Sequence record: PV287714.1
Direction: 5' to 3' (one strand)
DNA: 64,000 bases
From: Escherichia phage HMD-9
Within the stretch, counting starts at the first letter, position 1; the number at the start of each line of letters is the position of its first letter. Under the pieces are notes generated by a model that ran no database searches, had not been told where the DNA came from, and was given only the letters and a program-made list of their open reading frames with translations. A program made the translations under genes and the position numbers. Of the stretch, positions 37,769 through 46,375 are shown piece by piece.

Positions 37769-39356
<1,588 letters not shown>

Positions 39357-39383: not shown

Positions 39384-40562
39384 TTAAAAGTATTTTTTAA
39401 AACTCATCATAACTTTATCATCAACATCATTATCAATCTGTGCTACAAGATAAGATGACAGTTCTACTTCTTGCGGTGCAGATTGAACATTATCAGAATT
39501 AAGATATTCACGAATCCAAGGATACGGATGTTTAACCGGAGCATCGGTAATTGGACATGGAAGACCACACTGTTTCATACGAGATACAGTTAAGTAATCA
39601 ATAAAGCTCCACATGCTATTTGTATTTAATCCAGGAACATCGCCATCTTTAAATAAATGAACTGCCCAATCTTTTTCTTGGCGGTTAACTTCCATGAAAA
39701 TATCAACTGCTTCTTGTTCACACTCTTGAGCAATTTTAACCCATTCATCGCCATCAGTACCGGATTGAAGTTGACGAATAATATATTGAGTGCCTTTAAG
39801 GTGAAGCTGCTCATCACGAGCAATGAACTTCATAATCTTGGCATTACCTTCCATGATTTCCATGTTTTTGTGGAAGTTAAATGTACAGGCGAAAGATACA
39901 TAAAAACGAATAGCTTCCAATGCGTTGATTACATGAAGGCAGAGGTAAAGAGATTTCATTAGCGCTCGTTTAGCTTCGGCTTCTTGTTTAATAGCTCGAT
40001 TTAAACGAAAATCAGCATCAGGAGATTCTTTAGCTAGTTCTACGAATTCTTTAGCATTTTCCCATTCACGGGTCTTCTTAAGAACATCATCGTAGTAGCG
40101 ACCAATGGACTCGGCACGTTTCATAATATCTTCATCTAATACAATCTCATCAAATACCTTTGACGGATCAGTATAAAGATTTCGCATAATATGAGTGTAT
40201 GAACGACTGTGAATAGTTTCGCTAAAAGTCCATGTAGCAACCCATGTATCAAGACTTGGGTCTGAAATTAACGACATAAGTACAGCAGACGGTGCACGAC
40301 CCTGAATGCTATCTAGAAGTGATTGATACTTCAGGTTATTAGTAAAAATATCTTGCTGATACTGAGGAAGCTTGTTAAATTGTGCAGCATCCATCATCAA
40401 GTTTACTTCTTCCGGACGCCAGAAAAATGACAAAGACTTCTCAATAAGTTCTTCAAATACTCGATGCCGTTGAATATCATATCGAGCTAAACCCAATCCA
40501 GAACCAAAAAACATCGGCTCAGTCAAAATATTAACAGGTGATGTATTAAAAACAGTACTCAT
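39384..40562 (-). CDS. nrdB: ribonucleotide reductase small (R2) subunit, uninterrupted
   Basis: 392-aa continuous ORF with no intron-like interruption. Confidence 0.93.
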   Translation of the reverse strand: MSTVFNTSPVNILTEPMFFGSGLGLARYDIQRHRVFEELIEKSLSFFWRPEEVNLMMDAAQFNKLPQYQQDIFTNNLKYQSLLDSIQGRAPSAVLMSLISDPSLDTWVATWTFSETIHSRSYTHIMRNLYTDPSKVFDEIVLDEDIMKRAESIGRYYDDVLKKTREWENAKEFVELAKESPDADFRLNRAIKQEAEAKRALMKSLYLCLHVINALEAIRFYVSFACTFNFHKNMEIMEGNAKIMKFIARDEQLHLKGTQYIIRQLQSGTDGDEWVKIAQECEQEAVDIFMEVNRQEKDWAVHLFKDGDVPGLNTNSMWSFIDYLTVSRMKQCGLPCPITDAPVKHPYPWIREYLNSDNVQSAPQEVELSSYLVAQIDNDVDDKVMMSFKKYF

Positions 40563-41200
40563 TTAGAATCCTTAAATTTACATTTATCATAATGCCATCT
40601 TAAAGCATTACCTTTATTAACTTTCTTTCCACAATGCGGACACGGCGGATACTCTGCACCTTGTTTAGTTCTCAAAGAAATCAAATCGCGGGTTTCTTTA
40701 GTATGAGGAACATCTCTCGTTGGAGAGATTGTACCATACATTGGATTAAGCACGCCGACTTTAGCAGCAGCTATATTCTTTTTAGCTTCTTCAGTTTTAG
40801 GTTTTCTCATGCGAGCTAAATGCTCTTTAGTAAATTTCCTTCCTTTAAGAGCTCTACTTATCTTTTCTCTGGTTTCTATAGAAACTTCACGTCCTATAGC
40901 AGCTCCAGACAAACGTCGTCTACCTAATTCGTATAGTTGAGAAGAAATTTTATATGAGCGATTTTTACCAGTCAAGCACATTAAACCAAAAGCTTTCTTT
41001 AATCCCGGGGTGTCATATATTTTACATAAAAGCCAATGCGCTATAAAATGCTCTCTACCTGTTAATTCAACTAAATTTTCTTTATCATCAGAACCTCCCA
41101 TACATCTAGGGATTATATGATGAGTCTCTTTATATCCTAATAAAGGTTCCCGGGTTTGTGCCCGGGAAATTAAACTGTTATATACGTTTTGATAATTCAT
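40559..41200 (-). mobile_element. mobE: free-standing HNH homing endonuclease (MobE-like) between nrdA and nrdB
   Basis: 213-aa ORF with HNH motif HHIIPRCMGGSDDKENLVELTGREHFIAH and C-terminal CxxC pair; overlaps nrdA stop (TAATG) and nrdB start (ATGA). Confidence 0.75.
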
Positions 41201-43464
41201 TACAATTTACACGCTGCGCAATCTTCAGCTTTTGGAGTTTCTATTTCATAATCATCAGTACCGGAACCATCACGAGTATTATGATAATAGAAGTTTTTAA
41301 TGCCATAATACCATCCGTATAGCATGTCATCAATCATTACAGACATTGGAACCTTTCCTTTTGGAAAAATCTGCGGGTCATAATATGTATTCGCTGAAGC
41401 TGATTGACATACCCATTTAAGCATAATAGCTACCTGCGTAAGATAAGGTTTATTACCTTTCTTAGCTAATTTCCATGTATAATCATATAGGTCTATGTTA
41501 TGTTCAATATTGGGCACGACTTGATTAAAGGAACCCTCTTTTGATTCTTTAACAGAGACTGGTCCGCGTGGAGGCTCGATACCGTTTGTACTGTTGGAAA
41601 CTTGGGAAGATGACTCACATGGCATAAGTGCTGATAATGTGCTATTACGGATGCCAAAGAGCTTAAGGTCTTCCCGCAGCGACGACCAGTCACAAACGTA
41701 TTTTGGAGCTGCGATTTGGTCAATCTTTTTATTGTACCAGTCGATAGGTAATTCGCCTCGAGACCAACGAGTGTCTGAATAATATTCGCAAGGTCCTTTT
41801 TCTTTGGCGAGCTTAATGGATGCTTTAATGAGTCCATACTGTAGTCTCTCAAATAGTTCATGTGTTAAATCGTTAGCATCTTCATAAGAAGCAAAGTTAC
41901 TTGCCAGCCAAGCTGCATAGTTAGTAACACCTACACCAAGATTTCGACGCTTTTTAGCTTTTTCTGCTTCAGGAACTGGATATCCTTGGTAATCCAAAAG
42001 ATTATCAAGAGCGCGAACTTGAACTTCTGCCAATTCATTAATTTTATCTTGGTCTTGCCAATCGAAGTTATCTAACACAAATGCAGATAACGTACACAAT
42101 CCAATTTCGGCATCAGGACTATTCACATCATTTGTTGGAATAGCAATTTCACAACACAAGTTACTCTGACGAATAGGTGCCTTTTCACGAATAAACGGAG
42201 TATAGTTATTCGTATTATCAATGAACTGTACATAAATCCTTGCTGTTCCTGATCGTTCAGTCATGAGCAATTCAAACAGTTCACGGGCTTTAATACGCTT
42301 TTTACGAATATTAGGGTCTTTTTCTGCGGCTTCGTATAATTCACGGAAACGGTCTTGGTCTTTAAAATAAGAATAATAAAGCTCACCACCCATTTCATGT
42401 GGACTGAACAAAGTAATGTAGTCGTTCTTTCCAAAACGTTCCATCATTAGGTCATTCAGCTGGACGCCATAATCCATATGACGGATACGGTTTTCTTCTA
42501 CGCCTTTGTTATTTTTCAAAACGAGAAGATTTTCAACTTCCAAATGCCAAATAGGATAATAAGCAGTAGCAGCGCCGCCACGAATTCCACCCTGTGAGCA
42601 TGATTTAACAGCAGTCTGAAAATGTTTCCAAAAAGGAATAACACCAGTATGACGTACTTCACCTGTACCAATCTTAGAACCTTCGGCACGAATCATACCA
42701 ACGTTAATACCAATTCCAGCGCGTTTGGAGATATATTCAACAATTGAAGCGGAAGCCTTGTTGATAGACTTCAGCGAATCACCCGCCTCAATAACAACGC
42801 ATGAACTAAACTGCCGAGTTGGAGTACGGCAACCAGCCATAATAGGAGTTGGTAATGAAATCTGTCGAGTAGATACTGCTTCATAAAAACGAATAACGTG
42901 TTTTAGTCTATCAACAGGTTCATCTTGATGCAATGCCATTCCAATAGTCATAAATGCAAACTGTGGAGTTTCATAAATTTGACCAGTGGTTTTATCTTTA
43001 ACTAGATATTTTTCTTTTAATTGCATCGCCCCGGAATAAGTAAATTCCATATCCCGCTCATGCTTAATTTTTGATTCTAAAAATGTAATTTCTTCTGCTG
43101 AATATTTTGACAGCAGTTCAGGGTCATATTTACCTTCATTTACACAGTAAGAAATATGGTCAATAAATGAACGGGGCTCATACTGCCCGTAAACATGCTT
43201 ACGAAGAGCGAACATTAAACAGCGTGCAGCTACATATTGATAATCAGGCTCTTCAACTGAAATAGAATTCGCAGCAGCCTTAATTACAATGGTTTGAATG
43301 TCATCAGTGGTCATTCCATCACGGAGATATGATTTAATATTTTCATATAATTCATAAGGATCTACAGATGTTCCTTCAGCTGCCCAAGATAAAACTTTAA
43401 TAATTTTTTGCGGGTCAAAGCTCTGAGAAACACCACTACTTTTGATAACATTAATTAATTGCAT
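41200..43464 (-). CDS. nrdA: ribonucleotide reductase large (R1) subunit
   Basis: 754-aa ORF; size as T4 NrdA. Confidence 0.95.
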   Translation of the reverse strand: MQLINVIKSSGVSQSFDPQKIIKVLSWAAEGTSVDPYELYENIKSYLRDGMTTDDIQTIVIKAAANSISVEEPDYQYVAARCLMFALRKHVYGQYEPRSFIDHISYCVNEGKYDPELLSKYSAEEITFLESKIKHERDMEFTYSGAMQLKEKYLVKDKTTGQIYETPQFAFMTIGMALHQDEPVDRLKHVIRFYEAVSTRQISLPTPIMAGCRTPTRQFSSCVVIEAGDSLKSINKASASIVEYISKRAGIGINVGMIRAEGSKIGTGEVRHTGVIPFWKHFQTAVKSCSQGGIRGGAATAYYPIWHLEVENLLVLKNNKGVEENRIRHMDYGVQLNDLMMERFGKNDYITLFSPHEMGGELYYSYFKDQDRFRELYEAAEKDPNIRKKRIKARELFELLMTERSGTARIYVQFIDNTNNYTPFIREKAPIRQSNLCCEIAIPTNDVNSPDAEIGLCTLSAFVLDNFDWQDQDKINELAEVQVRALDNLLDYQGYPVPEAEKAKKRRNLGVGVTNYAAWLASNFASYEDANDLTHELFERLQYGLIKASIKLAKEKGPCEYYSDTRWSRGELPIDWYNKKIDQIAAPKYVCDWSSLREDLKLFGIRNSTLSALMPCESSSQVSNSTNGIEPPRGPVSVKESKEGSFNQVVPNIEHNIDLYDYTWKLAKKGNKPYLTQVAIMLKWVCQSASANTYYDPQIFPKGKVPMSVMIDDMLYGWYYGIKNFYYHNTRDGSGTDDYEIETPKAEDCAACKL

Positions 43465-43781: not shown

Positions 43782-43998
43782 ATTGTTTTTCCGTTAAAAC
43801 AGTAATATCATAGTAACAATCTGAAGAAGTTTTAACTGTAGAAATTTTATTATCAAAATACTCACGAGTCATTTTATGAGTATAATATTTTTTGCCGTAA
43901 ATGATAATAGGCTGATTTGGTCCTGGAACTTCTAACTCGCTTGGGTTAGGAAGTGTAAAAAGAACTACACCAGAAGTATCTTTAAATCGTAAAATCAT
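43735..43998 (-). CDS. hypothetical protein
   Basis: 87-aa ORF with GTGAGGA RBS. Confidence 0.5.
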
Positions 43999-44021
43999 AT
44001 ATCCTCACAATTAATAATTAA

Positions 44022-44333
44022 TTACACCGCCATTTTTCCTTTAATAGGAGGGTGTGATTCGTAACCTTTAAGAACGAAATCTTTAGGCCTGAGTTTAAGA
44101 ATGTATTCCAATTGTTCTTTAGTAGAAAGATAACGGAATTTATAAGGCAATCCGCCTATTACCAGTTCACAAAGCTCTTTAGGTTCACGACGCAAAATTT
44201 CTTTACATTGTTCTACGTGATTCATATAGATATGAGTATTACCGCCAGAAAATATCAAATCTCCTGGAATAAGATTACACATCTTAGCTACAATATGAAC
44301 CAACGCAGCATATGATGCAATGTTGAATGGAAG
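44022..44333 (-). CDS. td: thymidylate synthase, exon 2 (103 codons + stop)
   Basis: Begins CTT CCA TTC (LPF...) immediately after intron 3' end ...CATAATG; exon1+exon2 = 286 aa, the T4 TS length. Confidence 0.9.
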   Translation of the reverse strand, partial: LPFNIASYAALVHIVAKMCNLIPGDLIFSGGNTHIYMNHVEQCKEILRREPKELCELVIGGLPYKFRYLSTKEQLEYILKLRPKDFVLKGYESHPPIKGKMAV

Positions 44334-44587
44334 CATTATGTTCAGATAAGGTCGTTAATCTTATCCCGGAATTATATCCAGCTGCATGTCACCATACAGA
44401 TCAGACTATATCTCCATCTTGATGAAGCAAGATGTCTATCGTTTCGAGTCACTTGACCCTACTCCCCAAAGGGATAGTCGTTAGGCATTTAGTTCAAAAG
44501 AACATTTAGCACGGGATTGTCTACTAGAGAGGTTCCCCGTTTAGATAGATTACAAGTATAAGTCACCTTATACTCAGGCCTCAATTA
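44334..44587 (-). ncRNA. group I self-splicing intron in td, 254 nt, without a homing-endonuclease ORF
   Basis: Minus-strand sequence TAATTGAGGCCTGAGTATAAGGTGACTTATAC...GGATATAATTCCGGGATAAGATTAACGACCTTATCTGAACATAATG matches the T4 td intron ends as recalled; where T4 carries the I-TevI loop there is only GTTCTTTTGAAC. Confidence 0.8.
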
Positions 44588-45136
44588 ACCCAAGAAAACA
44601 TCTACACTTCTTTGGTACCATTGTAAATCAAGATAACCATTACGCACATTAAACTGATAGAACATATGACAGGGCGGTAATGCCATTTGATTGATTTCAG
44701 CTGGATTCCATGCTGAAACGATTTGACGTCGATCAGTTGGTAATTTTTTAATACGATCAATAGTTTCAACTAATTGATCCACACCACCGAAATCACGCCA
44801 TTGTTTACCGTATATAGGACCAAGTTCACCACTATGATATCCTAGGTCTTTAGCCTGGTTTTCATAGTTATCGTCCCAAATAGTTTTACCTTGAATAAGA
44901 CTACCATGAGTGCGAAGACGTAAATCATTAACATTGGTAGAACCGGAAATAAACCATAGAAGCTCAGCAATGCAAGCTTTCCAAGCGAGCTTCTTAGTCG
45001 TTACTGCAGGAAAACCTTTAGTTAAATCCCAGCGTAATTTAGTACCGAACAAAGCAATTGTTCCTGTGCCTGTTCGGTCATCGGTTTCATAGCCATTTTC
45101 AAAAATGTCTTTAATTAAATCTTGGTATTGTTTCAT
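44588..45136 (-). CDS. td: thymidylate synthase, exon 1 (183 codons)
   Basis: MKQYQDLIKDIFENGYE... ending ...VDVFLG at the 5' splice site; in-frame TAA lies in the intron. Confidence 0.9.
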
Positions 45137-45180
45137 TTAGTACCTTATATAAATTATAATACATTTTATGAAGCTAATAA

Positions 45181-45528
45181 TCAATACGGTTTAGCATCAA
45201 ATTTTCTTTCAATTTCAGGCGTAAAATACAATTCTTTACCACGCTTGGAAAAGCGACCAATAATATGATAATTATTCTCATCAAACGTGATATTGCCGAT
45301 ATCCATAGCTTTCAACCAAATATCGATATTTCTGTCAAGCTTTATATCAAAATTCCAATACGGAGAATTATTACCAAAAATACTACAAGCGGATTCAGTG
45401 AAACAACTGCTATAAATCTTGTCTTTAGGAACTACTAATTGATAGACGCCTTTAATAAACTGAGGACCCTGCCATTTTGGTTGTTTCGCGTCTTTTTCTA
45501 ATAGAATAGGGTAATAATTAAAGTTCAT
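45181..45528 (-). CDS. orphan 115-aa protein encoded by an insertion between frd and td
   Basis: ORF-track start is GTG; ATG at 45528 gives MNFNYYPILLEKDAKQPKWQGPQF...; no motif recognised. Confidence 0.5.
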   Translation of the reverse strand: MNFNYYPILLEKDAKQPKWQGPQFIKGVYQLVVPKDKIYSSCFTESACSIFGNNSPYWNFDIKLDRNIDIWLKAMDIGNITFDENNYHIIGRFSKRGKELYFTPEIERKFDAKPY

Positions 45529-45548
45529 ATTTTCCGCCACGTGTTATT

Positions 45549-46375
<827 letters not shown>

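Follow-up and report, generated by a model that had tools for sequence, protein, structure and literature searches.

The thymidylate synthase gene td of phage T4 is interrupted by a textbook mobile group I intron, which carries the gene of the homing endonuclease I-TevI and whose length is usually given as 1016 nucleotides (nt). Splicing of td tolerates the loss of the P6a loop, as is known from td constructs with the open reading frame (ORF) deleted and from deletion analysis of P6-L6a. In addition, the homologous cores of T4 introns reportedly recombine into functional hybrids, which is said to be the subject of a 1990 study by Bryk and Belfort, 'Spontaneous shuffling of domains between introns of phage T4'. 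Homing endonucleases are described by a life-cycle model of invasion, fixation, endonuclease decay, loss and re-invasion (PMC5009752), and the tight regulation of I-TevI has been attributed to keeping ribosomes off the intron core (PMC2988022). Furthermore, the intron of the T4 gene nrdB contains a defunct endonuclease, I-TevIII, and is mobilised in trans by MobE (PMC2790892, PMC1865063). Here we describe the td intron of Escherichia phage HMD-9, found in a stretch of 64,000 nt (PV287714.1; the whole stretch is called the window below). It is a group I intron of 254 nt without an endonuclease gene, and its P6a element is a 12-nt hairpin identical to that of an intron in another gene, nrdD (sunY).

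The td locus of phage HMD-9

The window belongs to a Tequatrovirus and shows 94-96 % identity to several coliphages across 24 kb. Its td gene lies on the minus strand and consists of the following parts:

44588-45136, minus strand: td exon 1, 549 nt or 183 codons, within an ORF (44585-45136) that ends at the TAA of the intron start
44588-44593, minus strand: exon strand of P1, UUGGGU, the last 6 nt of exon 1, with a U.G wobble at the 5' splice site
44334-44587, minus strand: td group I intron, 254 nt, endonuclease ORF absent, boundaries from the T4 td annotation
44585-44587, minus strand: in-frame TAA, the first 3 intron nt, stopping the reading frame of exon 1
44475-44545, minus strand: tract of 71 nt (intron nt 43-113), 100 % identical to an nrdD intron
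44492-44503, minus strand: mini P6a hairpin GUUC-UUUU-GAAC, GTTCTTTTGAAC (intron nt 85-96), placed by alignment to T4, CE1, HP3 and WL-3
44334, minus strand: terminal G, the last intron nt
44022-44333, minus strand: td exon 2, 312 nt, 103 codons and a stop at 44022-44024

The boundary between exon 1 and the intron agrees with the T4 td join annotation. The intron, which we take to be of subgroup IA2, begins with TAATTGAGGCCTGAG, including the TAA in the frame of exon 1, and finishes with GAACATAATG, both as in T4. The C-terminal part of td is encoded by an ORF at 44022-44336. Joining the exons in silico (549 + 312 nt) yields a thymidylate synthase of 286 amino acids (aa) with 92 % aa identity to T4 Td, in which the Pfam domain Thymidylat_synt (PF00303) is matched over positions 1-266 in a single stretch (E = 7.9e-96); removal of the intron thus makes the host gene uninterrupted. 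Exon identity to T4 is 86 % at the nucleotide level; 70 codons differ synonymously and 22 non-synonymously.

A sequence-only reading of the window had proposed that exons of 183 and 103 codons in td are separated by a group I intron of 254 nt with ends like those of the T4 intron. The coordinates proved exact, and the ends as well as the insertion site are those of T4; the location on the minus strand had been left unstated. The same reading had noticed synonymous exon differences from T4 and had concluded that the sequence comes from a natural relative and not from T4 itself, a conclusion that follows equally from the exon divergence and codon counts given above.

The intron sits in td exactly where that of T4 does, between TTGGGT and CT. 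Both have a common P1-P9.2 architecture, an initial in-frame TAA and a terminal G, and the identity amounts to 84/84 over the first 84 nt and 151/158 (96 %) over the last 158 nt. The 775-nt segment of T4 that comprises P6a and I-TevI corresponds to the 12-nt GTTCTTTTGAAC in the window, in line with the palindrome that had been noticed at this position. Whereas the T4 P6a stem has 8 bp (UGUAGGAC/GUUCUACA), the window has a 4-bp stem GUUC/GAAC with a UUUU loop. In contrast to T4, the I-TevI gene is absent together with its promoter, operator and regulatory hairpin. The T4 intron measures 1017 nt by the join coordinates of NC_000866.4 and that of phage WL-3 1016 nt.

A P6a hairpin shared with the nrdD intron

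In the window the hairpin is flanked by GCUAAAU and UAAAUGCC. A 58-nt probe across the hairpin junction matched four td loci and, at another genome position, about 44 further records. This second position is the nrdD intron, in a variant that departs from its T4 counterpart at numerous sites and is designated here as 'B-type'. In the phages CE1, pSe_SNUABM_01, N2 and 236Ecol005PP the P6a of this variant has the very sequence GTTCTTTTGAAC, and N2 as well as 236Ecol005PP carry a 254-nt td intron and a B-type nrdD intron in the same genome. The identity extends to the whole tract of 71 nt (TCTAAACGGGG...CGACTA), the longest common substring of the two introns, which covers J3/4, P4, P5, P6, P6a, J6/7 and the 5' strand of P7. 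Beyond this tract the two introns are about 56 % identical. T4-type td introns match the tract perfectly in its first 42 and its final 17 nt, so that these two stretches could act as homology arms in a conversion.

The endonuclease ORF of nrdD introns is located near the intron 3' end, and all nrdD introns examined have a 12-nt hairpin between GCTAAAT and TAAATGCC. A 12-nt P6a hairpin is therefore the normal nrdD architecture. The B-type hairpin is found in about 44 nrdD records (Tequatrovirus and Mosigvirus) and the T4-type hairpin in 24-25, while the matching td forms number 4 and 1, respectively. Overall, the B-type nrdD intron is homologous to the td intron of the window and has the same 12-nt hairpin architecture in P6. 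However, it resides in another host gene, it differs in P1, P2, P3, P7.1, P7.2 and P8, and it possesses an I-TevII-like ORF near its 3' end which the td intron lacks. The intron of the window is a td intron with an nrdD-type P6a and not an nrdD intron.

P6a, bordered by the invariant GCTAAAT and TAAATGCC, varies particularly often; the nrdD intron of phage FL44, for example, has GTTTTTAGAAAAAC at this site, and unrelated introns of the same subfamily in IMG/VR have P6a hairpins of 14, 19 and 25 nt. The I-TevII-like ORF in the B-type nrdD intron of 236Ecol005PP has been annotated in two pieces, which points to decay of this endonuclease gene as well. The ORF-less introns in the DNA polymerase gene, gene 43, of Mosigvirus G2285 and Dhakavirus PSD2002 are nearly identical to td in P5 and in a 3' end of about 75 nt (P9-P9.2); they differ from the td intron in P3, P4, P6, P7.x and P8. 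The sharing of modules among introns of T-even phages thus seems to be general and to reach beyond td and nrdD.

Related td introns

The td intron of Salmonella phage GRNsp7 is also 254 nt long and has the backbone of the window's intron with one difference outside P6a. Its hairpin, CAGCAGTAGCTG, has precisely the P6a sequence of T4-type nrdD introns (common substring of 28 nt, td-type flanks). Since two td hairpins each equal one type of nrdD hairpin, an exchange between introns is required and not convergence. The td introns with mini-hairpins in the window, GRNsp7 and Gelderlandvirus SEA1 all have exactly the 12-nt hairpin architecture.

A counterpart with endonuclease is the 1016-nt td intron of WL-3, which encodes an intact I-TevI of 245 aa (236/245 identical to that of T4). 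Outside P6a it is identical to the intron of the window at 242/242 positions, 84/84 in the 5' part and 158/158 in the 3' part. WL-3 differs from T4 at 34/775 positions in the segment of P6a and ORF and at 7/158 in the 3' segment. Given this equal divergence of 4.4 % in both segments, WL-3 looks like a coherent ORF-containing lineage and not like a recent recombinant.

The 250-nt td intron of SEA1 shows the same GUUC/GAAC stem with a GAAA loop and has diverged by about 10 % from that of the window. No nrdD partner was found for its hairpin, GTTCGAAAGAAC, which is one base off the reverse complement of the window hairpin, GTTCAAAAGAAC. Speculatively, a loop inversion and one substitution could relate the two hairpins.

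Loss of I-TevI among T4-like phages

The exact 254-nt td intron of the window (100 % identity) is present in the phages N2 and 236Ecol005PP. SP21535 carries it too, in a record that begins inside the intron, and the td intron of CJY920 is 97.6 % identical. In all four records two 'thymidylate synthase' coding sequences (CDSs) are given and the intron is unannotated; HP3 and CE1 are likewise annotated with two such CDSs and no intron. The other td classes with loss of I-TevI (445, 320, 315, 262/263 and 250 nt) account for about 35 further records. The td introns of public genomes fall into these forms:

Intact, about 1016 nt: T4 and WL-3, roughly 200 records
445 nt: e11/2, G28, F1, FN and FL18, with an in-frame I-TevI remnant of 55 aa
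320 nt: HP3 group, about 15 records, with the final ~70 nt of the I-TevI ORF retained
315 nt: Klebsiella phage EI
262-263 nt: CE1, PD112, 215Ecol030PP and BYEP01, with the P6a stem retained and the loop cut to UUUG
254 nt: the form of the window and GRNsp7
250 nt: Gelderlandvirus SEA1

Like the window, the Tequatrovirus phages with deleted I-TevI have kept the intron with a degraded or lost endonuclease gene, and these introns are splicing-competent as judged by sequence. However, e11/2, the HP3 group and CE1/PD112/BYEP01 represent plain deletions which retain the T4 P6a stem and/or I-TevI codons; the inserts left at P6a measure 203 nt in e11/2, 78 nt in HP3 and 20-21 nt in CE1/BYEP01. The intron of the window has neither the T4 P6a stem nor I-TevI codons but a foreign hairpin instead.

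The td intron is far better conserved than its host gene. N2 and the window are 100 % identical in the intron but only 86 % in exon 1, and SEA1 is 89 % identical in the intron and 64-70 % in the exons. The same pattern of intron over exon conservation in T-even introns was reportedly described by Sandegren and Sjoberg in 2004 (J Biol Chem 279:22218). Additional high-identity matches revealed ORF-containing td introns in the Gelderlandvirus phages STP4-a and CGG4-1; together with the ORF-less intron of SEA1 they show that ORF-containing and ORF-less td introns coexist in two genera. A search of IMG/VR for further copies, with the P6 flanks and a variable hairpin, yielded nothing but introns of the same subfamily that are unrelated, lie in other genes and have other P6a hairpins, and a scan of JGI metagenomes for further copies found none.

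The group I ribozyme

The Rfam group I intron model RF00028 matches at 44382-44597 on the minus strand with 72.7 bits (gathering score 50, E = 1.6e-16). The match spans model positions 1-253 of 253, is not truncated, and belongs to the sole Rfam family that reaches its gathering score in the window. When the helices of the T4 td architecture are placed onto the sequence, P1, P2, P3, P4, P5, P6, P6a, P7, P7.1, P7.2, P8, P9, P9.1 and P9.2 all form with standard pairs. P1 pairs the exon strand UUGGGU with the intron strand GCCUGA and includes the U(-1).G wobble; the intron 3' end is AAUG with the terminal G. The parts downstream of P6 are arranged as follows:

44404-44479, minus strand: catalytic core 3' of P6, with P7, P7.1, P7.2, the P3 3' strand and P8
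44474-44479 with 44404-44409, minus strand: P7, pairs as drawn
44435-44440, minus strand: P3 3' strand, pairs as drawn
44428-44434 with 44415-44421, minus strand: P8, pairs as drawn
44344-44399, minus strand: 3' peripheral domain, with P9, P9.1 and P9.2
44393-44399 with 44382-44388, minus strand: P9, pairs as drawn
44360-44366 with 44344-44350, minus strand: P9.2, pairs as drawn

An unconstrained minimum free energy fold contains 60 of the 66 nested pairs of this model (z = -2.7 against shuffled sequences). Covariation was assessed among 14 homologues comprising td variants, the two nrdD intron types, gene 43 introns and three introns from IMG/VR. At 39 core pairs, standard pairing was found in 96.3 % of the cells and double changes in 17 of the 39; none of 500 shuffles reached the observed value, and slid partners pair at 30-39 %. 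The conserved core helices P3-P9, including the P3/P7 pseudoknot, are supported by this covariation. In P7 five of the six pairs are invariant among the homologues, and compensatory changes occur in P3, P7.2 and P8. Differences from T4 in the 3' half retain pairing as well (A-U to U-A in P8, C-G to U.G in P9, G.U to A-U in P9.2).

The longest ORFs in the intron, mechanical frames of 31-32 aa on either strand, include no endonuclease ORF. Two expectations of the sequence-only reading, a core with P3-P9 pairings that the Rfam model would recognise and the lack of a homing-endonuclease ORF, were therefore correct. In a scan of 43900-45700 the numbers of promoters and terminators were at chance level; the single terminator-like site within the td intron is the complement of P8. 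Judged by every feature that can be checked in the sequence, the element is a group I intron of the T4 td lineage, and the defining feature of a mobile homing intron, the endonuclease, is missing. It is almost certainly a functional ORF-less td intron.

Origin of the ORF-less intron

As the most parsimonious history, we propose that the ancestor was an I-TevI-containing td intron of the WL-3 lineage. Its segment of about 775 nt with P6a and I-TevI would have given way to the 12-nt hairpin that forms P6a in a B-type nrdD intron, and the route may have been ectopic gene conversion or template switching via the shared arms of 42 and 17 nt, and the outcome would be a clean removal of the ORF together with a P4-P6 domain already proven in another intron. 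The intron of GRNsp7 would have arisen by the same route from a T4-type nrdD template, with short arms of perfect identity only. Both the direction and the mechanism of this exchange are what we infer from the distribution of shared segments. Taken as one statement, a working ORF-less td intron that lost its ORF on an nrdD template in a WL-3-type ancestor has somewhat better than even prospects. The sequence-only reading had named two possible origins, an intron never invaded by the endonuclease or a clean ORF loss. The second is favoured over the first, because the hairpin equals P6a of an nrdD intron of the co-resident type and the remainder is identical at 242/242 positions to the ORF-containing intron of WL-3. 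Laboratory hybrids of T4 introns were selected or engineered, whereas hybrids of the window's type are natural and recurrent (two hairpin types), and they would remove the endonuclease gene precisely.

Several points weigh against this proposal, and some of them speak for a long-standing ORF-less td lineage that I-TevI never invaded. In such a history the 12-nt P6a would be td's own and td would have been the source of the 71-nt P4-P6 tract in the B-type nrdD intron. The WL-3-like forms with I-TevI would result from allelic recombination with td introns that contain the ORF. In its P4-P5 part the B-type nrdD intron indeed equals td and departs from T4-type nrdD at about 9 of 42 positions, so that the whole P4-P6 could have been received from an ORF-less td intron. 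The mini-P6a form of td may also be old, as SEA1 from another genus has a diverged ORF-less td intron with the same GUUC/GAAC stem, and group I introns are generally viewed as ancestrally ORF-less (PMC3073962). In CJY920 the hairpin sits on a 3' backbone resembling that of T4, and a matching nrdD intron was not detected in this phage. Donor and recipient are not always co-resident, since GRNsp7 now carries a B-type and not a T4-type nrdD intron, and a conversion in GRNsp7 would have had perfect arms of just 8 nt. The nrdD gene of HMD-9 itself lies beyond the 64-kb window, and the direction of the exchange cannot be proved from sequence alone. However, an intron that was never invaded would still need a second exchange between introns for the hairpin of GRNsp7, which equals the T4 nrdD hairpin with its non-td P4-P6 context. 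Its backbone would have to match at 242/242 positions an intron, that of WL-3, whose ORF and 3' half are each 4.4 % away from T4. In addition, the mini-hairpins are rare in td and frequent in nrdD, and every td mini-hairpin has the exact 12-nt architecture of nrdD. We therefore regard a never-invaded lineage as an unlikely though serious alternative to the templated loss of the ORF.

The form of the window might also be sought in a simple internal deletion of I-TevI, as in CE1, HP3 and e11/2, followed by point mutations towards GTTCTTTTGAAC, which would make the identity with nrdD a convergence. Independent deletions of I-TevI are frequent (445, 320, 315 and 262/263 nt), some of them with microhomology at the junction, but remnants of UGUAGGAC or GUUCUACA would be expected and none are present. 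Twelve of 12 positions match one nrdD hairpin, in GRNsp7 12 of 12 match the other, and both cannot occur by chance; nor were intermediates seen among the matches listed that cover most of the intron. A simple deletion from a T4-type intron was consequently rejected for the window's form, in which the T4 P6a stem and the ORF are wholly gone, and convergence after such a deletion is very improbable. Even harder to credit is that the 254 nt are not spliced and that td is a split pseudogene or encodes two separate peptides, although N2, 236Ecol005PP, HP3 and CE1 are publicly annotated in this way. Against it stand a match along the whole covariance model, a core that is intact, splice sites exactly like those of T4 and substitutions that, compared with T4, are compensatory. 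It would also leave unexplained why the exon changes are mostly synonymous, why the intron is 100 % conserved across phages whose exons differ by 14 % and why the same P4-P6 domain is present in the nrdD intron of about 44 records.

Predicted splicing, mobility and immunity

According to its predicted structure, the intron RNA would fold into P1-P9.2, guanosine would attack at the U.G pair of P1, and the exons would be ligated after the terminal G. Self-splicing is thus expected to join the 183 and 103 codons into a normal Td protein, while the in-frame TAA at the intron start would halt ribosomes that enter unspliced RNA. Without the ORF there would be no further need to exclude ribosomes from the intron core.

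Lacking an endonuclease gene of its own, the intron should be unable to home unless such an enzyme were supplied in trans. Its spread would probably depend on general recombination or on neighbouring free-standing endonucleases. The T4 nrdB intron likewise relies on other means to spread, its own endonuclease being non-functional, but it keeps a truncated ORF whereas the td intron of the window is without any ORF. Because the intron occupies and splits the homing site of I-TevI, whose recognition has been reviewed (PMC2988022), the td allele should be immune to this enzyme.

In the I-TevI cleavage region (44606-44615, minus strand; exon 1 positions -19 to -28) all differences between T4 and the window are synonymous switches of codon family, CGC to AGA for Arg and TCA to AGT for Ser. 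The cleavage motif CAACG of T4 is CAAAG in the window, which still satisfies CNNNG, and exon 1 positions -1 to -18 are the same in both phages.

By analogy with I-TevII, on which Loizos et al. are said to have reported, the P6a region and the flanks of the ORF were considered as a pseudo homing site of I-TevI. The best match, TTGGGTCTAC to TTGGTTCTAC, was no better than those of shuffled sequences (47/200) and the window's own form yields no match, and the idea was rejected.

Neighbouring genes

The surroundings of td in the window contain the following genes:

45181-45540, minus strand: ORF of 119 aa (phrog_1928) between frd and td, no Pfam match
41200-43464: nrdA
40559-41200, minus strand: free-standing ORF of 213 aa with HNH and NUMOD3 motifs, between nrdA and nrdB, about 3 kb from the td intron
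39384-40562, minus strand: nrdB, uninterrupted, 392 aa
38946-39380, minus strand: ORF of 144 aa with a GIY-YIG catalytic domain, seg-like, short and possibly truncated, directly downstream of nrdB
37769-38929: RNA ligase 1, next after the GIY-YIG ORF

The HNH ORF lies where other T-even phages have mobE or hef and, by analogy, could mobilise the td region in trans. HMD-9 is devoid of the T4 nrdB intron, as nrdB is uninterrupted and a single Rfam group I intron was found in the whole 64 kb. The genes frd and td overlap directly in T4; an intervening ORF comparable to that of the window is annotated in HP3, N2 and 236Ecol005PP. In 236Ecol005PP nrdA is annotated as a fragment of 478 aa followed by a 'putative mobile endonuclease', an insertion absent from the window. 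N2 contains a gene annotated as 'endonuclease I-TevI' on the opposite strand between the ORF downstream of td and nrdA, which is also absent from the window.

Significance

The feature itself is ordinary: group I introns with a degraded ORF or none at all are familiar, and public genomes already contain the identical sequence. From a practical point of view, the public annotations split td into two CDSs and overlook the intron. Public T4-like genomes together with the window form a natural decay series at a single locus, from intact I-TevI over in-frame remnants and partial deletions to complete loss, and the window would add a specific route to the complete loss of the ORF. No description of a natural and recurrent borrowing of the nrdD hairpin by td was found in the searchable literature, and such borrowing would be a modestly interesting addition to the life cycle of homing endonucleases. 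An imprecise deletion in P6a risks damage to the ribozyme in an important gene, while a copy of the nrdD P6a provides a hairpin proven in the same P4-P6 context.

Within a phage genome, sister introns (those of td, nrdD and perhaps also gene 43) may serve as mutual repair templates in a recurrent natural ectopic conversion, an idea to which we give about even chances. To the same even degree it may hold that this conversion precisely excises homing-endonuclease genes and shuffles ribozyme modules, with the window and GRNsp7 as two independent products. If true, it would be the natural counterpart to the laboratory shuffling of intron domains. Furthermore, it would offer a testable account of how 'clean' ORF-less introns arise secondarily, which matters wherever ORF-less introns are read as ancestral.

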